From Planctomycetota bacterium (GTDB lineage Bacteria > Planctomycetota > UBA1135 > UBA2386): a DNA stretch of 64,000 nucleotides. Below the pieces are notes generated by a model. The model saw only the letters and a list, made by a program, of their open reading frames with translations. It did no database searches and had not been told where the DNA came from. Positions 12,840 through 25,826 of this stretch are shown in pieces. A program made the position numbers and the translations under genes. Numbering within the stretch: the first letter of the stretch is position 1; every line of letters starts with the position of its first letter. Where the stretch lies: positions 6,336,001 through 6,400,000 of the forward strand of contig OZ245006.1 of NCBI GenBank assembly GCA_965223545.1, read 5' to 3'.

Positions 12840-13937
12840 ATGAAGTCTCCTTTCCCGTTCTCTGGCGCGGGCGCCGGTGGTCCGCACACCGACGAGTCGC
12901 GTCGCGCGCCGCATGCGGTGGGGCGCGATGATGCGCCGTGTGAGCGGATCCAGCTCGACCTGTCGGCGATGATCGACGGTGAGTTGGACCCCTCTGCCGT
13001 GCGCCGCGTGTTGGTGCACGCGGATGCGTGTCCCGCATGCCGCGGCTTCCTCAACGGCATCCGCGGCCAGCTGCGCGCGCACCGCGCGATCGCCGGGGTC
13101 GAGCCCCGTGCGGATGGGGCAGAGTGGGATGACGGCTGGGGCGACGTGCCGGATCGCACGCATCAGATCCGCGACCGGCTGCTGCACAACCGCCGCCAGA
13201 TGGCGCGCATTTTGTACACTCTCGGTCGCAGTCACGTGCTGATGGGCACCTCGCCCGCGTTCACCCGCGAGGTGGCCGAGGAGCCGGTGCCGATCCCCGA
13301 CGTCGAGCAGCGGGGGCGGGCGCTGTTGGCCGAGCTCGAGTGCTACGGCCCCGAGGTCGAATGGGTGCCGGCCAAAGAGCTGTTCGCCTCGCACGGCGAG
13401 CGGAGCGCCAGCGACAACCTCGCGCGCGGAATGCGTCTGCTGCGCGAGGCGCTGCAACTCGATGCCGACTTGCACGAGGCGCGGATCTATCTCGGCCACG
13501 CCCTGCATATCTTCGGCGAGCGCGACGAGGCGAGGGACGAGTTCGCCCGCGTGCTGCGCCACGCCAGCGACGCGCTGGTAATCGGCTTCGCCACGATCAA
13601 CCTCGGCAATGTCTTCCTCGAGGAAGGCGATGTTGCCGCGTCGATTCCCTATTTCGAGCGCGTCGTCGAGCTCGGTCTCGTGGCGGCTGAGCCCCGGTTC
13701 TTCACGGCCTACTTCAACCTGGCGCTGGCCCACGGCTTGCTGGCCAGGTTTGATTCCGCCGAGCGGTGGTTCCACCGTCTCTACGACGAGTTCCCGCACA
13801 AGCGCCGGCTGGTGGGGATCGAGATCGGCAAGCGCCGCTTGTTGGGCGCGGCGATCGACCGGCGCGCGGGGCAGCGACAACGCTGGGCGGCCGCGTTCCC
13901 GGAGTGGTTTTCGGTTGCAGGTGAGGTGCAGCAGTGA
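12840..13937 (+). CDS. Putative anti-sigma factor: zf-HC2 domain plus TPR repeats
   Basis: CERIQLDLSAMIDGEL...HADACPAC (HxxxCxxC); TPR-like ARIYLGHAL, INLGNVFL, YFNLALAH; follows the sigma gene. Confidence 0.85.
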   Translation: MKSPFPFSGAGAGGPHTDESRRAPHAVGRDDAPCERIQLDLSAMIDGELDPSAVRRVLVHADACPACRGFLNGIRGQLRAHRAIAGVEPRADGAEWDDGWGDVPDRTHQIRDRLLHNRRQMARILYTLGRSHVLMGTSPAFTREVAEEPVPIPDVEQRGRALLAELECYGPEVEWVPAKELFASHGERSASDNLARGMRLLREALQLDADLHEARIYLGHALHIFGERDEARDEFARVLRHASDALVIGFATINLGNVFLEEGDVAASIPYFERVVELGLVAAEPRFFTAYFNLALAHGLLARFDSAERWFHRLYDEFPHKRRLVGIEIGKRRLLGAAIDRRAGQRQRWAAAFPEWFSVAGEVQQ

Positions 13938-14338
13938 TGAGTGGGACCTTGTTGCGTGTGTTCGCGTTCTCGCTCGCCGCGCTGCTGTGGGGCGTCTCCG
14001 TGCCGGCGGGCGCGGGTGGCGAGGGCGGCTGGGTCGTCACGCCGCGGATGTCGTCGAGCGCGAGCCCGCGATTGTTGCAGCGCGCACCGATGGCGACTGG
14101 CCTCCGCCTCGAGCTGCCCGGCAGTGGTTGGGTGGTGGACGTCTCGATGCCCGAAGTCGGCGTCGTCGCGCGGTTCCCGGTCGAGGGGCGGCAGCTGGTG
14201 GTGCCCGGCGGCGTTCTGACCCAGCTGGCAGCGGCGGGAGTGCGCCAGTTCGAGCTGAGTGGCTTGGGCGTGGACGGCGCCGCCTGGCGGGTCCGCGTCG
14301 AGCTCGACGTCTCGGAGCTGGCGATCTCGGCGTTCTGA
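13934..14338 (+). CDS. Small secreted hypothetical protein
   Basis: Signal-peptide-like N-terminus; start overlaps the anti-sigma stop codon. Confidence 0.6.
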   Translation: MMSGTLLRVFAFSLAALLWGVSVPAGAGGEGGWVVTPRMSSSASPRLLQRAPMATGLRLELPGSGWVVDVSMPEVGVVARFPVEGRQLVVPGGVLTQLAAAGVRQFELSGLGVDGAAWRVRVELDVSELAISAF

Positions 14339-14459
14339 CCGCTTGTGATCGAGAGCGGGCGGCGGTCCCGGCCATTTTGCGTGTGGTGCGCTCTGCGTCT
14401 CGCAGGGCGCGCGCTCCCTCGGCCTCTGGATCGAGAGCTCGCGGGGCCGCCCGCAGCTC

Positions 14460-16492
14460 GCCGAGTAGCCGCGGGGGGTTGCCCCCCCGCAGCTCTCACA
14501 GAACCGGACTTGTGGGTCACACATCCGGCTCTTCAGGACGGTATCCCCCAAAGGGGCCGCCAGTCGTAGCGGCGCTCGTCCCAGAGCTTGGAAAGCGACA
14601 CCAGCCGCTCAGCAAACCACTGATTGGGATAAGCGCGTTTGATCGCTCCCGAGTTGCTCTGCCACCACGTGCCACGCCGGCCAAACGCGGTGCGTGCAGC
14701 CGACTGCCAGCTGCACCCACGGGCGACAAGGTCTCGGAAGAGGTATCGCGGTCTCTTCTTCTGCCGAATGATGATCGCCCGCAGGCGTCGTCGAATATGG
14801 CCATCGAGATTCCGCAAGGTCCGCCACGCGGCCTTCGTGATCAGCTTGAAGTAGCCGATCCAACCACGGAGGTAACGGTTCAGTCGTTCGATGCACCAGG
14901 ACAGCCGACCACCCCAGGACCGCGGCGTAAGCTCACGGATTCGGGCGTCGATGCGATCCAGAGTGCGACGGGACAACTGCACCGTCAGCCAGCCCTTTCG
15001 AGTTGCGCCTACGCGAAACCCGAGGAAGTGCCGGCGATGGGCCAGGTCGACGGAACTCTTCGCTTCGTTCACTTTCAGTCGCACGCGACGTTCGATGAAC
15101 CTGCGAATCGAAGCCATGACCCGGTGTCCTGAGCGCTCGCTACCGACGTAGATATTGCAGTCGTCGGCGTAGCGCACAAAACGCAACCCGCGTCGTTCCA
15201 ACTCCCAGTCCAGTTCGTCCAGGACGATGTTGGACAGCAGAGGTGATAGCGGGCCGCCCTGGGGCGTTCCTTCTTCCGTGATGACGCGGGTGCCATCTGG
15301 AAGAACCACGTTCGCTTTCAGCATCAGGCGGATGATCCGCAGCACCCGACGGTCCTTCACCTTCTGAGCCAGCCGGTCCAGGAGGCGTTGGTGATGGACA
15401 CGGTCGAAGAACTTCTCCAAATCGATGTCCACCGTGTACCGCCGACCCTGCTTCACGTAACCCGCTGCTTCGGCGATCGCTGTGTGGGCTCCCCGCCTCG
15501 GCCGGAAGCCGTGGCTGCTGTCGTGGAACGTCGGGTCGTAGATCGGCTCCAGAATCTGGCGCACGGCCTGTTGGACCCAGCGGTCGATCACGGTTGGAAT
15601 CCCGAGACCCCGCTGCCCACCACTGGGCTTCGGGATCCACACCCGACGAATATCGCCGGGCGCGTAGGTCTCCATGAGCAGAGCATCGCGGAGTTTCGGG
15701 AGCAGGTGTTTCGCATGACGCTTGACCTCTGACACCGTCTGTCCGTCGACGCCCGGGGCGCCCTTCTTGCTTACGACATGTGCCAGTGCGCTTCGCAGGT
15801 TGCCCTGCTCCGCGACCAGCTCCAGCAGATGGCAGTAGCCGTCCGCTGGCGGCGGAGCCGATTCCGATCGATGGCTGCAATCCGTCGTAGGCACCGACGT
15901 GGACTTCGTGGCAGATTCGTCTGCCCTTCCGGCCACGCCGTCCCCTTGCGGGCTCTCGGCGAAAGCGAACTGCAGTTGCCGTGGTTTCGGCTTTCTCATC
16001 CTGTCACCCCCTTCGCTCCACCGGCATTACCCGGCTTCATCACTACTACGGGGTGATCCGACTTCTCTGCATGCCTTGGTGGGTCGTCGTTGCCTCCTCC
16101 CCACCTACCGCTCGAAGCGGACACACAGAGATCTCCCTGGGTAAGAACGCAGAGTTTCGCGCCGCCGCCGGTTCCAGTACTCCGAGGTCGCGACTGGATA
16201 TCGGGCGTCACGTTGGATGGCACGCTGACCCAGACCTCGAGAGCCTTACGGAACTTCGCTTTCGCTCGGTGCTGCGCTGCGTCTAGGGCTTCCATCCCAC
16301 ACGACCTCGCGGGAACAGCACGGCACGGTGTCCGTCCTGTTCTGGCATCCCGGATCAACACCGCGCACCGCCCTCTCGGACGGCACACGGCTCCCCTTTC
16401 TGCCTCGTGCAGCTGCCTTCGACTCATGGTTTCCTCCAGTACGGATCCATAAAGAACTTTCATCTTCAACTCTGCGCCCATGCCAGGCGCAA
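14460..16492 (-). mobile_element. Group II intron, copy 1 (2033 bp)
   Basis: 5' TTGCGCCTGGCATGGGCGC; DV GAGCCGGATGTG..CACAAGTCCGGTTC; DVI ending CTACTCGGC; ends fixed by three-copy comparison and by restoration of the target palindrome. Confidence 0.93.
14533..15999 (-). CDS. ltrA: Group II intron reverse transcriptase/maturase (class C-like, no HNH endonuclease)
   Basis: GAPGVDG, IPKPSGGQRGLGIPTVIDR, SHGFRP, DLEKFFD, GTPQGGPLSPLLSNI, RYADD, LNRYLRGWIGYF. Confidence 0.97.
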   Translation of the reverse strand: MRKPKPRQLQFAFAESPQGDGVAGRADESATKSTSVPTTDCSHRSESAPPPADGYCHLLELVAEQGNLRSALAHVVSKKGAPGVDGQTVSEVKRHAKHLLPKLRDALLMETYAPGDIRRVWIPKPSGGQRGLGIPTVIDRWVQQAVRQILEPIYDPTFHDSSHGFRPRRGAHTAIAEAAGYVKQGRRYTVDIDLEKFFDRVHHQRLLDRLAQKVKDRRVLRIIRLMLKANVVLPDGTRVITEEGTPQGGPLSPLLSNIVLDELDWELERRGLRFVRYADDCNIYVGSERSGHRVMASIRRFIERRVRLKVNEAKSSVDLAHRRHFLGFRVGATRKGWLTVQLSRRTLDRIDARIRELTPRSWGGRLSWCIERLNRYLRGWIGYFKLITKAAWRTLRNLDGHIRRRLRAIIIRQKKRPRYLFRDLVARGCSWQSAARTAFGRRGTWWQSNSGAIKRAYPNQWFAERLVSLSKLWDERRYDWRPLWGIPS

Positions 16493-16764
16493 CATCACCA
16501 TCAGCGCCGGTCCAAGACGAGGCACAGGGTGCGACCGACGCCGATGGTGACGGAGCTGCGGGCGGCGGTCCCGGTGCGTGATGGGTAGGAGTGCAGCTCG
16601 GGCGCCTGAGCCGCAGGTCGCGGACTCAAGAGCGGGTTGTTTCGTCGCGGAGTGGTGCGCACTCGCTTCAGCTCTGGAGCTGGAGGTGGTGTGAGCTCTG
16701 GGGCTCGCAGAGCGCGCGCTCCCTCGGCCTCTGGATCTAGAGCTCGCGGGGCCGCCCGCAGCTC

Positions 16765-18797
16765 GCCGAGTAGCCGCGGGGGGTTGCCCCCCCGCAGCTC
16801 TCACAGAACCGGACTTGTGGGTCACACATCCGGCTCTTCAGGACGGTATCCCCCAAAGGGGCCGCCAGTCGTAACGGCGCTCGTCCCAGAGCTTGGAAAG
16901 CGACACCAGCCGCTCAGCAAACCACTGATTGGGATAAGCGCGTTTGATCGCTCCCGAGTTGCTCTGCCACCACGTGCCACGCCGGCCAAACGCGGTGCGT
17001 GCAGCCGACTGCCAGCTGCACCCACGGGCGACAAGGTCTCGGAAGAGGTATCGCGGTCTCTTCTTCTGCCGAATGATGATCGCCCGCAGGCGTCGTCGAA
17101 TATGGCCATCGAGATTCCGCAAGGTCCGCCACGCGGCCTTCGTGATCAGCTTGAAGTAGCCGATCCAACCACGGAGGTAACGGTTCAGTCGTTCGATGCA
17201 CCAGGACAGCCGACCACCCCAGGACCGCGGCGTAAGCTCACGGATTCGGGCGTCGATGCGATCCAGAGTGCGACGGGACAACTGCACCGTCAGCCAGCCC
17301 TTTCGAGTTGCGCCTACGCGAAACCCGAGGAAGTGCCGGCGATGGGCCAGGTCGACGGAACTCTTCGCTTCGTTCACTTTCAGTCGCACGCGACGTTCGA
17401 TGAACCTGCGAATCGAAGCCATGACCCGGTGTCCTGAGCGCTCGCTACCGACGTAGATATTGCAGTCGTCGGCGTAGCGCACAAAACGCAACCCGCGTCG
17501 TTCCAACTCCCAGTCCAGTTCGTCCAGGACGATGTTGGACAGCAGAGGTGATAGCGGGCCGCCCTGGGGCGTTCCTTCTTCCGTGATGACGCGGGTGCCA
17601 TCTGGAAGAACCACGTTCGCTTTCAGCATCAGGCGGATGATCCGCAGCACCCGACGGTCCTTCACCTTCTGAGCCAGCCGGTCCAGGAGGCGTTGGTGAT
17701 GGACACGGTCGAAGAACTTCTCCAAATCGATGTCCACCGTGTACCGCCGACCCTGCTTCACGTAACCCGCTGCTTCGGCGATCGCTGTGTGGGCTCCCCG
17801 CCTCGGCCGGAAGCCGTGGCTGCTGTCGTGGAACGTCGGGTCGTAGATCGGCTCCAGAATCTGGCGCACGGCCTGTTGGACCCAGCGGTCGATCACGGTT
17901 GGAATCCCGAGACCCCGCTGCCCACCACTGGGCTTCGGGATCCACACCCGACGAATATCGCCGGGCGCGTAGGTCTCCATGAGCAGAGCATCGCGGAGTT
18001 TCGGGAGCAGGTGTTTCGCATGACGCTTGACCTCTGACACCGTCTGTCCGTCGACGCCCGGGGCGCCCTTCTTGCTTACGACATGTGCCAGTGCGCTTCG
18101 CAGGTTGCCCTGCTCCGCGACCAGCTCCAGCAGATGGCAGTAGCCGTCCGCTGGCGGCGGAGCCGATTCCGATCGATGGCTGCAATCCGTCGTAGGCACC
18201 GACGTGGACTTCGTGGCAGATTCGTCTGCCCTTCCGGCCACGCCGTCCCCTTGCGGGCTCTCGGCGAAAGCGAACTGCAGTTGCCGTGGTTTCGGCTTTC
18301 TCATCCTGTCACCCCCTTCGCTCCACCGGCATTACCCGGCTTCATCACTACTACGGGGTGATCCGACTTCTCTGCATGCCTTGGTGGGTCGTCGTTGCCT
18401 CCTCCCCACCTACCGCTCGAAGCGGACACACAGAGATCTCCCTGGGTAAGAACGCAGAGTTTCGCGCCGCCGCCGATTCCAGTACTCCGAGGTCGCGACT
18501 GGATATCGGGCGTCACGTTGGATGGCACGCTGACCCAGACCTCGAGAGCCTTACGGAACTTCGCTTTCGCTCGGTGCTGCGCTGCGTCTAGGGCTTCCAT
18601 CCCACACGACCTCGCGGGAACAGCACGGCACGGTGTCCGTCCTGTTCTGGCATCCCGGATCAACACCGCGCACCGCCCTCTCGGACGGCACACGGCTCCC
18701 CTTTCTGCCTCGTGCAGCTGCCTTCGACTCATGGTTTCCTCCAGTACGGATCCATAAAGAACTTTCATCTTCAACTCTGCGCCCATGCCAGGCGCAA
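16765..18797 (-). mobile_element. Group II intron, copy 2 (2033 bp)
   Basis: Direct repeat of copy 1 at a 2305-bp offset; only two differences noticed by eye (16874, 18476). Confidence 0.93.
16838..18304 (-). CDS. ltrA: Group II intron reverse transcriptase/maturase
   Basis: Protein identical to the copy-1 RT in the ORF track. Confidence 0.97.
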   Translation of the reverse strand: MRKPKPRQLQFAFAESPQGDGVAGRADESATKSTSVPTTDCSHRSESAPPPADGYCHLLELVAEQGNLRSALAHVVSKKGAPGVDGQTVSEVKRHAKHLLPKLRDALLMETYAPGDIRRVWIPKPSGGQRGLGIPTVIDRWVQQAVRQILEPIYDPTFHDSSHGFRPRRGAHTAIAEAAGYVKQGRRYTVDIDLEKFFDRVHHQRLLDRLAQKVKDRRVLRIIRLMLKANVVLPDGTRVITEEGTPQGGPLSPLLSNIVLDELDWELERRGLRFVRYADDCNIYVGSERSGHRVMASIRRFIERRVRLKVNEAKSSVDLAHRRHFLGFRVGATRKGWLTVQLSRRTLDRIDARIRELTPRSWGGRLSWCIERLNRYLRGWIGYFKLITKAAWRTLRNLDGHIRRRLRAIIIRQKKRPRYLFRDLVARGCSWQSAARTAFGRRGTWWQSNSGAIKRAYPNQWFAERLVSLSKLWDERRYDWRPLWGIPS

Positions 18798-19034
18798 CAT
18801 CACCATCAGCGCCGGTCCAAGGCGAGGCACAGGGTGCGACCGACGCCGATGGTGACGGAGCTGCGGGCGGCGGTCCCGGTCGTGATGGGTAGGAGAGCAG
18901 CTCGGGCGCCTGAGCCGCAGGTCGCGGAATCAAGAGCGGGTGTTTCGTCGCGGAGTGGCGCGCACTCGCTTCAGCTCCGTCACCGTCGGCGGCGGTCGCA
19001 CCCCGTGCCTCGTCTTGGACCGCCGTCGTCGGTG

Positions 19035-21067
19035 TTGCGCCTGGCATGGGCGCAGAGTTGAAGATGAAAGTTCTTTATGGATCCGTACTGGAGGAAACCA
19101 TGAGTCGAAGGCAGCTGCACGAGGCAGAAAGGGGAGCCGTGTGCCGTCCGAGAGGGCGGTGCGCGGTGTTGATCCGGGATGCCAGAACAGGACGGACACC
19201 GTGCCGTGCTGTTCCCGCGAGGTCGTGTGGGATGGAAGCCCTAGACGCAGCGCAGCACCGAGCGAAAGCGAAGTTCCGTAAGGCTCTCGAGGTCTGGGTC
19301 AGCGTGCCATCCAACGTGACGCCCGATATCCAGTCGCGACCTCGGAGTACTGGAACCGGCGGCGGCGCGAAACTCTGCGTTCTTACCCAGGGAGATCTCT
19401 GTGTGTCCGCTTCGAGCGGTAGGTGGGGAGGAGGCAACGACGACCCACCAAGGCATGCAGAGAAGTCGGATCACCCCGTAGTAGTGATGAAGCCGGGTAA
19501 TGCCGGTGGAGCGAAGGGGGTGACAGGATGAGAAAGCCGAAACCACGGCAACTGCAGTTCGCTTTCGCCGAGAGCCCGCAAGGGGACGGCGTGGCCGGAA
19601 GGGCAGACGAATCTGCCACGAAGTCCACGTCGGTGCCTACGACGGATTGCAGCCATCGATCGGAATCGGTTCCGCCGCCAGCGGACGGCTACTGCCATCT
19701 GCTGGAGCTGGTCGCGGAGCAGGGCAACCTGCGAAGCGCACTGGCACATGTCGTAAGCAAGAAGGGCGCTCCGGGCGTCGACGGACAGACGGTGTCAGAG
19801 GTCAAGCGTCATGCGAAACACCTGCTCCCGAAACTCCGCGATGCTCTGCTCATGGAGACCTACGCGCCCGGCGATATACGTCGGGTGTGGATCCCGAAGC
19901 CCAGTGGTGGGCAGCGGGGTCTCGGGATTCCAACCGTGATCGACCGCTGGGTCCAACAGGCCGTGCGCCAGATTCTGGAGCCGATCTACGACCCGACGTT
20001 CCACGACAGCAGCCACGGCTTCCGGCCGAGGCGGGGAGCCCACACAGCGATCGCCGAAGCAGCGGGTTACGTGAAGCAGGGTCGGCGGTACACGGTGGAC
20101 ATCGATTTGGAGAAGTTCTTCGACCGTGTCCATCACCAACGCCTCCTGGACCGGCTGGCTCAGAAGGTGAAGGACCGTCGGGTGCTGCGGATCATCCGCC
20201 TGATGCTGAAAGCGAACGTGGTTCTTCCAGATGGCACCCGCGTCATCACGGAAGAAGGAACGCCCCAGGGCGGCCCGCTATCACCTCTGCTGTCCAACAT
20301 CGTCCTGGACGAACTGGACTGGGAGTTGGAACGACGCGGGTTGCGTTTTGTGCGCTACGCCGACGACTGCAATATCTACGTCGGTAGCGAGCGCTCAGGA
20401 CACCGGGTCATGGCTTCGATTCGCAGGTTCATCGAACGTCGCGTGCGACTGAAAGTGAACGAAGCGAAGAGTTCCGTCGACCTGGCCCATCGCCGGCACT
20501 TCCTCGGGTTTCGCGTAGGCGCAACTCGAAAGGGCTGGCTGACGGTGCAGTTGTCCCGTCGCACTCTGGATCGCATCGACGCCCGAATCCGTGAGCTTAC
20601 GCCGCGGTCCTGGGGTGGTCGGCTGTCCTGGTGCATCGAACGACTGAACCGTTACCTCCGTGGTTGGATCGGCTACTTCAAGCTGATCACGAAGGCCGCG
20701 TGGCGGACCTTGCGGAATCTCGATGGCCATATTCGACGACGCCTGCGGGCGATCATCATTCGGCAGAAGAAGAGACCGCGATACCTCTTCCGAGACCTTG
20801 TCGCCCGTGGGTGCAGCTGGCAGTCGGCTGCACGCACCGCGTTTGGCCGGCGTGGCACGTGGTGGCAGAGCAACTCGGGAGCGATCAAACGCGCTTATCC
20901 CAATCAGTGGTTTGCTGAGCGGCTGGTGTCGCTTTCCAAGCTCTGGGACGAGCGCCGCTACGACTGGCGGCCCCTTTGGGGGATACCGTCCTGAAGAGCC
21001 GGATGTGTGACCCACAAGTCCGGTTCTGTGAGAGCTGCGGGGGGGCAACCCCCCGCGGCTACTCGGC
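19035..21067 (+). mobile_element. Group II intron, copy 3 (2033 bp, opposite orientation)
   Basis: Inverted copy; differences from copy 1 noticed at 19670, 19770, 19878; DV 20996-21026, DVI about 21030-21064. Confidence 0.93.
19528..20994 (+). CDS. ltrA: Group II intron reverse transcriptase/maturase
   Basis: Same RT with one A->V change (SESVPPP vs SESAPPP). Confidence 0.97.
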   Translation: MRKPKPRQLQFAFAESPQGDGVAGRADESATKSTSVPTTDCSHRSESVPPPADGYCHLLELVAEQGNLRSALAHVVSKKGAPGVDGQTVSEVKRHAKHLLPKLRDALLMETYAPGDIRRVWIPKPSGGQRGLGIPTVIDRWVQQAVRQILEPIYDPTFHDSSHGFRPRRGAHTAIAEAAGYVKQGRRYTVDIDLEKFFDRVHHQRLLDRLAQKVKDRRVLRIIRLMLKANVVLPDGTRVITEEGTPQGGPLSPLLSNIVLDELDWELERRGLRFVRYADDCNIYVGSERSGHRVMASIRRFIERRVRLKVNEAKSSVDLAHRRHFLGFRVGATRKGWLTVQLSRRTLDRIDARIRELTPRSWGGRLSWCIERLNRYLRGWIGYFKLITKAAWRTLRNLDGHIRRRLRAIIIRQKKRPRYLFRDLVARGCSWQSAARTAFGRRGTWWQSNSGAIKRAYPNQWFAERLVSLSKLWDERRYDWRPLWGIPS

Positions 21068-21267
21068 ACGGTGCTGAGGCGAGCCTTCAGCTCTGGAGCT
21101 GGAGGTGGTGTGAGCTCTGCGTTTCGCAGGGCGCGCGCTCCATCGGCCTCTGGATCGTGAGCGGGCGGTGGTCACGGTCCTCGGAGCTTGGGGGTTTGGC
21201 TTGGACTGAACGGAGAAAAAACGTGCGAACTGCTGACAGGTTTCACGAGTTTCCTTTTGTCGGATTC

Positions 21268-21296
21268 TTGCATGCTGACTCGCTCTCTAGTAAGGT
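21268..21296 (+). promoter_or_regulatory. Sigma70-like promoter for the RAYT-like gene
   Basis: TTGCAT-N17-TAAGGT in an AT-rich patch, 11 nt before the ATG at 21308 (very short leader). Confidence 0.5.
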
Positions 21297-21307
21297 CGCT
21301 AATTCAA

Positions 21308-22006
21308 ATGACGAGCAAGACGGTTGGGGCGCGGTGCGGGGGACGACGCCGTGGGGTGGTGCAGGGCGAGCTGCCGTTTCGGCAGTGGGGTGGGGCTCGG
21401 GAGGGGGCTGGGCGGCCCAAGGTGAGTGACGAGACGGTGCCGCACTTGGCGCGGGGGGCGTTGGTGGCGCGGTATCCGTTGCACTTGACGGTGCGGTTGT
21501 GTCGGGGGTTGCCGGGCTTACGGAATGCGCGGACGTACTGGATGTTGGTGGAGCGGATCCGGGCGGGGTGTGGGCGGTTCGGGTTTCGGTTGGTGGAGTT
21601 CTCGGTGCAGCGTGATCACTTGCACCTCTTGGTCGAGGCGAAGGATCGGGAGGCGTTGACGCGGGGGATGACCGGGCTGTTGGTGCGGATGGCGCGGGGG
21701 TTGAACAAGTTGTGGGGGCGCTCGGGGCGGGTGTTTGCCGAGCGGTTTCACGAGCGGGTGCTGCGCTCGCCGACGGAGGTGCGGCGGGCGTTGGTGTATG
21801 TGCTGCAGAATGCCTGGCACCACCGGCAGCGGCCGCGGCAGTTGATCGACGTCTACTCGTCGGGGCCTTGGTTCGACGGGTGGCGCGAGGTGGTGGAGTT
21901 GTCGGAGCCGGTGGTGCGGCCGACGGTGCGGGCGCGAACGTGGCTGCTCAAGGGAGGGTGGCGGCGGTCGCGGGGACGGTTGGACTTCCGCGAGCGGCCG
22001 GCGTAG
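21308..22006 (+). CDS. HUH/Y1 tyrosine transposase, REP-associated (RAYT-like; IS200/IS605 TnpA superfamily)
   Basis: PLHLTVR, FRLVEFSVQRDHLHLLVE (HUH), GRVFAERFHERVL, ALVYVLQNA (catalytic Tyr), SSGPWF; no tnpB; adjacent palindrome array. Confidence 0.88.
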   Translation: MTSKTVGARCGGRRRGVVQGELPFRQWGGAREGAGRPKVSDETVPHLARGALVARYPLHLTVRLCRGLPGLRNARTYWMLVERIRAGCGRFGFRLVEFSVQRDHLHLLVEAKDREALTRGMTGLLVRMARGLNKLWGRSGRVFAERFHERVLRSPTEVRRALVYVLQNAWHHRQRPRQLIDVYSSGPWFDGWREVVELSEPVVRPTVRARTWLLKGGWRRSRGRLDFRERPA

Positions 22007-22075
22007 CCGGTGGATTGCTAATGCAGGAGTCGACTCGGGCAGGGGGGCGGTTGCCGACGTCCAGGGCCGACTGGC

Positions 22076-23083: not shown

Positions 23084-24324
23084 GTGACGTCGTCCCCAAC
23101 CCTGCCGGCCCATCGGGTCCGTCTGCTCGTGCCCGCCGTACTCCTGCCCGCGGGCGTCGCGCTCTCGGTCGGCCTCGCCACCACTACCGCCGCCGCGCAG
23201 CAGGCCTCCGCGCCAAGCGTGCGCTTCGAATTGGCGGGCGCACCCACTCCGGTCGGGCCGATGGCCGGCTTGCCCCAGATCGCCGACCTGGACGGTGACG
23301 GCGCGCTCGACGTCGTCGTCGCGTGCGGACCCTGCTGTGGCATGGAGCCCGACCCGGCCGCGGGCCACGTCCGGGTCTTGCTCGGCGACGGGCGCGGAGG
23401 CCTGCGGCCGCAGGACCGCATCCGCGTTGGCGACACCGCGCTGCGCGTCGCGATCGGCGACATCGACGAGGACGGCCATCCCGACGTGGCGTGCGTGCAG
23501 CACTCCAGCTACCGGGTCGAGCTCCTCAGGGGCAGCGCCGACGGCACCCTGCAGCACCGCCCCGAGTGGGGTTTCGACTGGTGGGATGGAGAACGCCCGC
23601 ACGTGCACTCGGTCGTGCTCGAGGACCTCGATCGCGACGGCCACCTCGACTTGGCCGCGACCCTGGTCGCGGACCACTCCTTGGCGGTGTGGTTGGGAGA
23701 TGGCCGCGGCGGGTTCCGGCCGGCGCTGGGGCAGCCCTACTACGCGCACCGACACCCGTACGAACAGCTGGCGATCGCCGATCTCAACGAGGACGGCAAT
23801 CCCGATGCGGTGCTGACCGACGTGCGTGGCGGTGGCGTGACCGTGTTGGCCGGTTCTGGCACCGGCATGTTCGCCACCTCGCGGGGGTTTCGGTTGGCGG
23901 CGCACACGCCGATCGACGTCGAACGCCCGACCGCGCTCGCGCTCGGCGATCTCGATGGCGATGGCGACGCCGACGCCGTCGCGGTGATCGACGAGGCTCC
24001 GCAGGCCGTGGTGCTGCAGAACCAGGGTGGTGGCGACTTCGCGCCGCTCGGGCCGCCGCTGCGGCTGGCGGTCGCCGCCAACAGTGTCCGCGTCGCCGAC
24101 TTGAACGGCGACGGCCACCCGGACTTCGTCACCGGCTGCGTGCAGGGCACCGCGCTGTCCGTCAACTACGGCGATGGCGCCGGCGGCTTCGCGCCTTCGC
24201 TGGCGGTCGATGTCGGGGTCGCCAACCCATCGGTTGCGGTTGGCGATCTCGACGGCGACGGGCACGTGGACCTGGTTGCCAGCAGCTACTCGGAGGGAGT
24301 GGTCGTCGTGCTCTTGGCGCGGCG

Positions 24325-24331
<7 letters not shown>
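23084..24331 (+). CDS. Secreted FG-GAP/VCBS repeat protein
   Basis: Seven DLDGDG..D-type repeats; signal-peptide-like N-terminus; GTG start inferred. Confidence 0.88.
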
Positions 24332-25689
<1,358 letters not shown>

Positions 25690-25732
25690 CGGCCGGTTCC
25701 TCTTGGGCGAAATTCCGTCAGATGCCTCTCAA

Positions 25733-25826
25733 ATCCTGCGAAAATGGCAAGATTGCAGTGGCACTGGTGCAAAAATTAGCCTCTAGCGTGCGCAGTGTCT
25801 CCAGGATTCTGCGGAATATGCAGAAT
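25733..25826. promoter_or_regulatory. Two related palindromic boxes upstream of glnA (candidate operators)
   Basis: ATCCTGC-N7-GCAAGAT (25733-25753) and ATTCTGC-N7-GCAGAAT (25806-25826). Confidence 0.5.

Follow-up and report, generated by a model that had tools for sequence, protein, structure and literature searches.

A group II intron was found inside hairpins that lie upstream of a transposase-like gene family. The stretch analysed here (the window) comprises 64,000 nucleotides of a Planctomycetota bacterium genome (assembly GCA_965223545.1, contig OZ245006.1, positions 6,336,001 to 6,400,000). Its region 14347-22006 carries three copies of the intron, which encodes a reverse transcriptase (RT), together with a gene for a tyrosine-transposase-like protein of the Y1/HUH type. 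Judging from sequence comparisons, we propose that a recent burst has brought a class C (group IIC) intron to 14 copies in the genome, and that it retrohomes strand-specifically into hairpins of a multi-copy Y1 element. The protein of this element resembles RAYTs, the tyrosine transposases associated with repetitive extragenic palindromes (REPs). We estimate the probability of this reading at roughly 0.8.

Among the group II introns of bacteria, those of class C are the most common. Their homing into stem-loops is already known: DNA stem-loops are chosen by shape, mostly terminators and, in one lineage, attC sites (PMC4424553, PMC7306698). What would be new is a class C lineage specialised on hairpins of a Y1 element, a third type of target next to terminators and attC.

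Insertion sites of the intron

The genome (8.1 Mb, 70% G+C, two contigs) contains 14 intron copies that are 99.4-100% identical. Flanks could be defined for all of them: 11 copies follow the conserved core of one hairpin, two follow a related shorter hairpin and one lies at an unrelated site. When the empty site is reconstructed, it folds into one long hairpin of ~86-88 nt, composed of a lower stem of ~14 bp, an upper stem of ~20 bp and a loop of 19 nt. Insertion takes place in the 3' arm, where the upper stem meets the lower one, and leaves an intact stem-loop immediately 5' of the intron. Such a stem-loop directly precedes the intron in 13 of the 14 copies. The preliminary description, made from the window, had proposed a specific long palindrome rather than ordinary terminators as the target, and this was borne out by the same 13 copies, with a single one at the unrelated site.

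A fuzzy search for the 27-nt hairpin core returned 22 sites; together with one indel variant, 23 canonical hairpins are present in the genome. Tabulation of filled and empty sites, as the preliminary description had suggested, gives 11 filled and 12 empty canonical hairpins. If the insertion sequence (IS) of the ISL3 family described below is included, there are 13 filled and 13 empty sites. By our own arithmetic, the probability that 11 of 14 copies fall by chance into 23 hairpins (~2 kb of 8.1 Mb) is below 1e-30.

All 23 canonical hairpins are located in arrays directly upstream of 13 Y1 loci, which corresponds to ~1.8 hairpins per gene, and at least one intron is present at 8 of these 13 loci. 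The tight link between palindrome and Y1/HUH genes, claimed earlier for the window, is supported by the whole genome, and it is kept in other genera (see below). No canonical hairpin was detected in the genome away from the Y1 arrays; the search found there only three look-alikes in the ISL3 copies and one orphan (C1:6578084). Eight of the matches to CCGTCNCCNTCGGCRTCGG with one mismatch outside the arrays were folded, and one proved to be a true hairpin of this type and seven did not. Many of these matches are, we infer, GC-rich coding repeats of the DxDGDG kind.

The arrays are built of tandem units of ~353 nt with the order H_A> S1 S2 <H_B T1 T2 T3, in which hairpin H_A stands in gene orientation and hairpin H_B is inverted. 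The linkers between hairpins (S1-S2, ~110 nt; T1-T3, ~100 nt) are non-coding. Array length differs by locus, and most arrays start where the upstream gene ends, close behind its stop codon. An alternative assignment as an integron attC array or CALIN was rejected, as the short non-coding linkers leave no room for cassette open reading frames (ORFs); no integrase search was made.

Insertion occurs after ...TG at the stem end in 11 of the 13 hairpin insertions, and 3 nt upstream, after ...CGGTG, in the other two. The sequence 5' of the intron reads ...GGTGATG in 10 sites, ...GAGGGTG in the two ISL3 sites and ...GTCGATG in one H_B site. The last exon nucleotides (intron-binding site 1, IBS1, 3-4 nt) are accordingly GAUG or GGUG, and the first nucleotide of the 3' exon is G or A. 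All 13 hairpin insertions are on one strand, though a similar GGTG is available on the other. It is the strand with G.T wobbles that is entered, and this strand has the more stable fold, with DNA folding energies (dG) of -34.0 versus -25.9 for the complement in H_A and -44.4 versus -38.9 in H_B.

We compared the 11 copies in canonical hairpins pairwise. In all 55 pairs the introns, 99.4-100% identical, are more alike than the 150-nt flanks, which are 53-95% identical. Both H_A and H_B have received introns, which point along or against the Y1 gene and are found at differing array positions. Since the introns are far more alike than their flanks and sit in such varied hairpins, orientations and positions, these 11 insertions are, by sequence comparison, independent and recent events rather than products of passive copying.

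The related shorter hairpin belongs to an ISL3-family IS (1.44 kb, 24-bp terminal inverted repeats) that is present in three copies (C1:2607059-2608501, 3672918-3676390 and 5060154-5063630). This internal hairpin, located between the right inverted repeat and the transposase start, has 37 nt of arm sequence in common with H_B; the arm sequence common with the canonical hairpin is CACC-N-TCGGCGTCGG. The intron resides at the same internal hairpin in two of the three IS copies and the third is empty.

The remaining copy (C1:2456638-2458670) is inserted antisense near the 3' end of a gene that matches Pfam Sulfatase, severing ~62 codons. It follows ...UGGUG, and no convincing stem-loop, hairpin or array sequence was found upstream. 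This copy probably represents an ectopic retrotransposition that damaged a host gene.

Organization of the window region

The preliminary description had reported three 2033-nt RT-encoding introns, each splitting a hairpin of ~88 nt, 240 bp before a Y1 gene. Comparison of filled with empty sites and folding confirmed this organization; the 240 bp separate the end of intron copy 3 (21067) from the ATG of the Y1 gene (21308). The features are as follows (window coordinates, strand in brackets).

14347-14459 (no strand): left edge of the array, just past the stop codon that closes upstream ORF 13934-14338; T1 at 14355-14371, S2 at 14414-14438
14447-14459 (-): severed lower 3' arm of H_B no. 1, from module map and hairpin fold
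14460-16492 (-): IIC intron copy 1, 2033 nt; RT ORF 14533-15999 (-), 488 amino acids (aa)
16493-16565 (-): H_B no. 1, lower 5' arm, upper stem and loop; ends with ...GGTGATG directly 5' of intron copy 1
16558-16666 (+): array linker T1-T2-T3, within 16558-16764; S2 at 16719-16743
16752-16764 (-): severed lower 3' arm of H_B no. 2, from module map
16765-18797 (-): IIC intron copy 2, 2033 nt; RT ORF 16838-18304 (-)
18798-18870 (-): H_B no. 2, consisting of 5' arm, loop and upper 3' arm; intron copy 2 follows directly
18863-18969 (+): array linker T1-T2-T3, from module map
18965-19034 (+): H_A, 5' arm, loop and upper 3' arm; insertion follows ...GTCGGTG, 3 nt before the normal position
19035-21067 (+): IIC intron copy 3, 2033 nt; domains D1-D4 (Rfam) 19211-19381, RT ORF 19528-20994, D5-D6 20994-21067
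21068-21083 (+): severed lower 3' arm of H_A, within 21068-21307
21068-21307 (+): modules S1 (21076-21108) and S2 (21138-21162), degenerate T1, then conserved Y1 leader from ~21257
21308-22006 (+): Y1/HUH tyrosine-transposase-like gene, 232 aa; HUH motif H104-L-H106, and catalytic Tyr Y164 in 'YVLQNA'

Linker motif T1 (GCGGGCGGCGGTCCCGG; 14355-14371, 16558-16574 and 18863-18879) resembles the closing ~50 nt of the Y1 gene (GGTGGCGGCGGTCGCGG...TTGGACT...CGCGAG; 21957-21973). The T linkers might be remnants of a right end of the Y1 element, in which case the arrays might be chains of end-to-end junctions.

In contigs from DNA sequencing runs, position 19034 is joined to 21070 with 'AT' between them (runs X1, X5 and X6). 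This joint was considered as an intron-less allele and rejected: it matches paralogous empty H_A sites, and X5 and X6 yielded fragments only. The one RNA run compared with the window, a polyA library (X23), gave 0 reads, a result without bearing on expression or splicing. Words of the window part 18700-21400 occur in runs of 17 studies with many organism labels, in shares of 0.13-0.85, which suggests that the bacterium or the intron is a frequent passenger in sequencing data of other organisms. Downstream of the Y1 gene, at 23280-24273, six copies of a 34-nt coding repeat (Asp/Gly-rich, 'DxDGDG'-like) are situated inside an ORF of 818 aa (23323-25779, +), for which no Pfam match was obtained at E <= 0.001.

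Identity and boundaries of the intron

Comparison of filled with paralogous empty sites, extended to all genomic copies, gives an exact intron length of 2033 nt, 5'-UUGCG...CUACUCGGC-3'. The filled site exceeds the empty one by exactly this length, so that ...GGTGATG|GTGGTGAGG... becomes ...GGTGATG[2033 nt]GTGGTGAGG... A repeat scan of the window shows the same three copies as near-identical repeats of ~2042 nt (14453-16494, 16758-18799 and 19033-21074), the third inverted with respect to the first two.

Each of the three window copies has an intact RT/maturase ORF of 488 aa, and ~566 nt per intron lie outside it. A Pfam scan of the protein detected RVT_1 (residues 122-330) and GIIM (348-418) only; no DNA endonuclease domain was found. 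The protein scores 373 bits with NCBIfam TIGR04416, the group II RT/maturase equivalog (cutoff 300). As for the RNA, Rfam RF02001 (D1-D4) matches all three window copies with 71-73 bits (gathering score 32). RF00029 (D5-D6) scores 39.2 bits, just below its gathering score of 40, and the end of this match coincides with the deduced 3' end of the intron. The bulged A of D6 is placed 7 nt from that end.

Among proteins of known structure, the RT is closest to the GsI-IIC RT (402 bits), followed by the group II intron RT/maturase 7uim (335 bits), the 'retron-type RT' fragments 5hhl and 5hhj (264 bits), LtrA (136 bits) and 6me0 (119 bits). The structure 7uim is that of a Eubacterium rectale IIC intron; 5hhl and 5hhj are IIC intron RTs as well. 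Judged by RT similarity scores, the intron is a group IIC (bacterial class C) intron, which supports the earlier assignment to this class.

The penultimate intron nucleotide is G instead of A (...CUCGGC; window 21066-21067), and it co-occurs with U at the first position (19035) in all 14 copies. The same U1/G(-2) pair is present in one relative (L125, 1506-3682; 54% identical). Among relatives for which both intron ends could be placed, the remaining 33 combine G1 with A(-2); five entries starting 'TTGTG' represent a 2-nt offset of a GUGCG start and were scored as G1 in this count. The pair looks like a natural covariation at the contact between the first and the penultimate nucleotide, a contact reportedly known from mutagenesis of yeast aI5gamma.

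The Y1 gene family

The Y1 gene had been taken for a solo gene in the preliminary description. In fact, the genome carries 12 intact copies of 232 codons and one fragment (13 loci), with 95-98% amino acid and 92-96% nucleotide identity. Across 66 pairs the median synonymous divergence (dS) is 0.148 and the median dN/dS is 0.14, with a maximum of 0.25. Given this dS and the low dN/dS, the paralogues are old relative to the intron burst and have been kept functional; on codon comparison, they are under purifying selection.

Similarity between loci stops at the Y1 stop codon. Neither a conserved right-end hairpin nor a target motif was found after the stop across the 12 copies, and no hairpins were found downstream in this genome. 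Four of the 12 copies share a further stretch of ~50 nt after the stop (...TTGCTA.TGCAGGAG...GGGCAGGGGGCGGTTGCCG; window 22007-22060, and C1 near 2431550, 3214120 and 5690820). Possible sources are a paralogous convergent gene, of which this would be the terminal part, and a right end that has decayed.

We wondered to which transposases the Y1 protein is related. The ORF in the window matches Pfam Y1_Tnp with 25 bits. H104-L-H106 and Y164 are invariant in all 34 aligned homologues, as are an N-terminal WGGxRxGAGR motif (within WGGxRxGAGRKPK) and several C-terminal tryptophans. The tyrosine motif of the family is YVLxNA (Y---NA). A single-sequence search of the PDB returned nothing at E <= 1. 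With a profile of the 34 sequences, the sole PDB match was E. coli TnpA_REP (4ER8), a weak one with E 0.017. An AlphaFold (AF2) model of the protein (pLDDT 83) has 4er8_A as its best Foldseek match (E 1.3e-5), followed by the TnpA proteins of ISDra2, IS200 and IS608. NCBIfam REP_Tyr_transpos scores 34.8 bits (E 1.3e-8), below its cutoff of 80, and the NCBIfam IS200 models gave no match at E <= 0.001. An ordinary IS200 TnpA with its own ends had been named earlier as the contrary case. Its grouping part fails, the closest structure being TnpA_REP 4ER8; the other part, a multi-copy element with hairpins of its own, agrees with what was found.

Homologues of the Y1 protein are numerous (at least 1192 at E <= 1e-10); many lie on contigs of ~1 kb and some are labelled RayT by JGI. 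Fourteen of 40 related genomes have matches, from 9 to at least 70 per genome (G036 at least 70, G017 33, G028 22, G022 15), and the homologues in the nearest genomes are ~55% identical. In G017, a perfect palindrome with the core CCGTCGCCGTCGGCATCGG occurs within ~1.1 kb upstream at no fewer than 23 of the 25 Y1 places listed, and a second hairpin type is situated just downstream of several copies. Y1 copies of this genome are often in tandem ~1.4 kb apart (C34:169127 and 170501; C1:297056 and 298428), each with its own upstream palindrome. In G011, both Y1 copies are preceded by a homologous long hairpin. As judged from these loci, hairpin and Y1 gene travel together across genera with approximately one hairpin set per gene, which is the pattern of an IS or of a multiplied REPtron.

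Intron relatives and published precedents

The RTs nearest to that of the intron are 46-48% identical in the 40 related genomes, and the highest identity among GTDB genomes, sampled at one per species, is 58%. In metagenomes the best RT reaches 73% (L120); its 5' flank is missing and its 3' flank is an unrelated small ORF (L120:1616-2000). This small ORF may be of the four-helix-bundle '23S rRNA intervening sequence protein' type. Intron ends of relatives were placed by blastn anchoring in combination with a tight end pattern. Relatives with boundaries placed in this way follow ordinary hairpin-plus-T-run terminators (Firmicutes) or unrelated GC-rich stem-loops.

No published description of class C introns homing into Y1-associated palindromes was found in a literature search whose coverage of subscription journals was thin, and which is no proof of novelty. 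The nearest precedents are partial. In Pseudomonas putida KT2440, whose genome contains 938 REPs, two of nine copies of a group II intron (22%) are REP-associated (Tobes and Pareja 2006, PMC1525189). Introns of the IIB class have been observed to co-occur with attC sites and an IS200/605 element, and shared single-strand requirements were speculated upon (PMC7923331). For class C introns, structure is said to matter more than sequence, and only a slight preference for neighbourhoods of mobile elements is reported (PMC7306698).

Alternative explanations and points of doubt

The preliminary description had read the region as a REP/REPIN-RAYT system in the accepted sense, in which a single domesticated RAYT maintains dispersed REPs or REPINs and these serve the intron as a renewable intergenic target. 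Some observations agree with it: TnpA_REP is a closer match to the Y1 protein than IS200 TnpA is (REP_Tyr_transpos at E 1.3e-8; 4ER8 both the sole PDB profile match and the top Foldseek match), homologues bear the JGI label 'RayT', and the alternately inverted hairpin arrays resemble BIMEs or REPIN doublets. However, a mean of 1.3-1.8 copies per replicon has been published for RAYT groups (PMC5581495), against 12 intact copies and a fragment here where about one would be expected. All 23 canonical hairpins stand beside Y1 genes, and elsewhere there are just the orphan and the three ISL3 look-alikes. Moreover, the REP_Tyr_transpos score of 34.8 stays under the cutoff of 80, hairpins downstream of the gene are missing, and the tyrosine motif is Y---NA, not the Y---NP of TnpA_REP (PMC6006769). 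This reading is largely refuted, and we consider it very improbable. A different possibility is that the intron inserted once or twice and that its copies were raised passively, by duplication or transposition of the Y1 gene with its array units. Two of the window copies, 2305 nt apart in successive units, have short flanks that are 93-97% similar, and the intron at the same internal place in two of three ISL3 copies could have been copied by transposition of the IS. Yet flank similarity stays below intron similarity in each of the 55 pairs. The use of H_A and H_B, of both orientations, of differing array positions and of two insertion points 3 nt apart is likewise against hitch-hiking, as is the copy in an unrelated gene lacking hairpin or array sequence. 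Further, the median dS of 0.148 between Y1 paralogues contrasts with an intron divergence of 0.6% at most. Passive multiplication is thus hard to credit.

Generic class C behaviour deserves somewhat more weight, though it too seems improbable. The intron would here enter any terminator-like stem-loop with a compatible IBS1 of 3-4 nt, and the Y1 link would be incidental. This would agree with arrays beginning right after upstream stop codons, with relatives that follow terminators or unrelated GC-rich stem-loops, and with the preference for structure over sequence described for class C introns (PMC7306698). It does not account well for 13 of 14 copies lying in one hairpin sequence family in an 8.1-Mb genome that must hold many other stem-loops. 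Nor does it explain why the ISL3 hairpin that is also used has arm sequence (CACC-N-TCGGCGTCGG) and not shape alone in common with the canonical one, or why a single strand of the palindrome is used in 13 of 13 cases.

Specialised, strand-specific homing into hairpins of the Y1 element is favoured by us over these explanations, and several points weigh against it. Splicing and mobility are deduced from DNA sequence, and the one observation that points to the hairpin as a putative substrate of the Y1 protein is their conserved co-location. As the arrays begin right after upstream stop codons, an additional role of the hairpins as terminators is conceivable. The intron copies could also look younger than they are if gene conversion has taken place among them. 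The first intron nucleotide is U (UUGCG) in all 14 copies, not the canonical G of GUGYG. Exon-binding sites 1 and 3 (EBS1 and EBS3) are candidates only; for EBS1 this is the loop CAUC at 19308-19311, which is able to pair with both IBS1 forms (GAUG and GGUG). Replication polarity adds little: with an origin near 4.0 Mb and a terminus near 0.1 Mb by cumulative GC skew, the intron sense strand is leading-strand sequence in 10 of 14 copies, i.e. the lagging-strand template is the target. Such targeting is the direction expected for endonuclease-less introns, and the bias is weak and not significant (one-sided p ~0.09, own arithmetic). The same applies to filled hairpins, which make up 7 of 11 in lagging-strand-template orientation and 4 of 12 in the other, not a significant difference. 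Finally, tblastn with the Y1 protein at 170 loci of intron relatives gave one marginal match (E 0.004) in 90 of them and none in the other 80. Because no close relative was found (RT identity of 73% at most) and distant ones showed no Y1 neighbour apart from this marginal match, the pairing of intron, Y1 gene and hairpin is documented in one genome only.

Comparison with known systems

The intron has much in common with IIC introns inserting after intrinsic terminators, such as B.h.I1 (Robart, Seo and Zimmerly 2007, as cited in PMC4424553 and PMC7306698): an RT without endonuclease, ~566 nt outside the ORF, insertion 3' of a stem-loop and a very short IBS1. Unlike in those introns, the target is one conserved hairpin family of ~88 nt without a T-run, entry takes place inside a long stem, the first nucleotide is U, and 13 of 14 copies reside in hairpins of mobile elements. 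The IIC-attC introns, represented by S.ma.I2 (Quiroga et al. 2008; Leon and Roy 2009; via PMC4424553 and PMC3001079), are similar in being specialised on an imperfect palindrome that is a single-strand substrate of another recombination system, and in inserting strand-specifically inside the folded element. Their partner is an integron tyrosine recombinase, whereas the partner here is a Y1/HUH gene family, and the non-coding linkers of ~100-110 nt contain no cassette ORFs. Insertion sequences that target REPs (PMC1525189) are another example of mobile elements using repeated palindromes as safe landing sites. There, a minority association (22%) with abundant dispersed REPs was described; here, 11 of 14 copies are in a hairpin that exists in 23 copies adjacent to Y1 genes.

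On the side of the transposase, the family resembles REPtrons (TnpA_REP 4ER8) in its Y1 HUH core, in having 4ER8 as best structural match and in the long hairpins beside the gene. The alternately inverted hairpins with linkers recall bacterial interspersed mosaic elements (BIMEs). It differs from REPtrons in copy number, with 12 intact, selected paralogues of ~96% amino acid identity and at least 70 matches in one relative, in hairpins that are not dispersed, and in the YVLxNA motif, the additional N-terminal WGGxRxGAGRKPK and a C-terminal W-rich extension. The typical REPtron layout, with inverted REPs on both sides of the gene, is absent from the source genome, where hairpins are upstream only; G017 has them on both sides.

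Elements of the IS200/IS605 family (IS608, ISDra2) likewise combine a multi-copy Y1 gene with hairpins. The upstream and downstream hairpin types of G017 resemble their left and right ends, and the strand-asymmetric hairpins suggest single-strand recognition. On the contrary, the RAYT-like protein has 232 aa versus ~150 aa of a Y---Q TnpA, copies are 92-96% and not ~99% identical in nucleotide sequence and are under purifying selection, and no right-end hairpin was found across the copies of the source genome. In the classification of Quentin et al. 2018 (PMC6006769, Table 1), Y---NP marks class 2 of TnpAY1 (TnpA_REP) and Y---Q class 1 or 3; a resemblance to IS as well as to REPtrons is noted there for class 3 only.

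Proposed mechanism and implications

By analogy with class C introns (PMC4424553, PMC7306698), the intron ribonucleoprotein (RNP) would recognise a folded single strand together with an exon pairing of 3-4 nt. The intron would then reverse-splice into this strand, and a nascent strand at the replication fork would prime reverse transcription, as expected for the intron family. The hairpins themselves would be cis-elements of the multi-copy, RAYT-like Y1 (HUH) family, as their co-location with it suggests. On this reading, the intron is a retroelement exploiting the hairpins of an HUH-transposase element and a look-alike hairpin in an ISL3 IS.

A bolder proposal is that hairpins serving as single-strand substrates of HUH/Y1 enzymes form a third natural class of IIC target beside terminators and attC, possibly with a functional interaction between intron and Y1 protein. 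We regard this as speculative and, at present, rather unlikely. An interaction is conceivable because at replication forks both elements would use one and the same folded strand. Y1 enzymes typically bind and cleave at the foot of the upper stem. If the proposal is true, the intron, inserted at this very place, could disable or regulate the Y1 element. Conversely, the Y1 protein could mobilise intron-bearing hairpin units as single-stranded DNA, a second, DNA-based route of spread.

The Y1 genes represent a large, poorly described family that combines a RAYT-like fold with IS-like copy number, and this bears on the relationship between RAYTs and IS200 transposases. The 13 filled and 13 empty sites constitute a natural set for dissecting how a IIC RNP reads a hairpin with respect to strand, wobble pairs, distance and IBS1. 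For class C introns, our reading would mean that stem-loop homing can narrow to the recognition hairpins of an HUH transposase.

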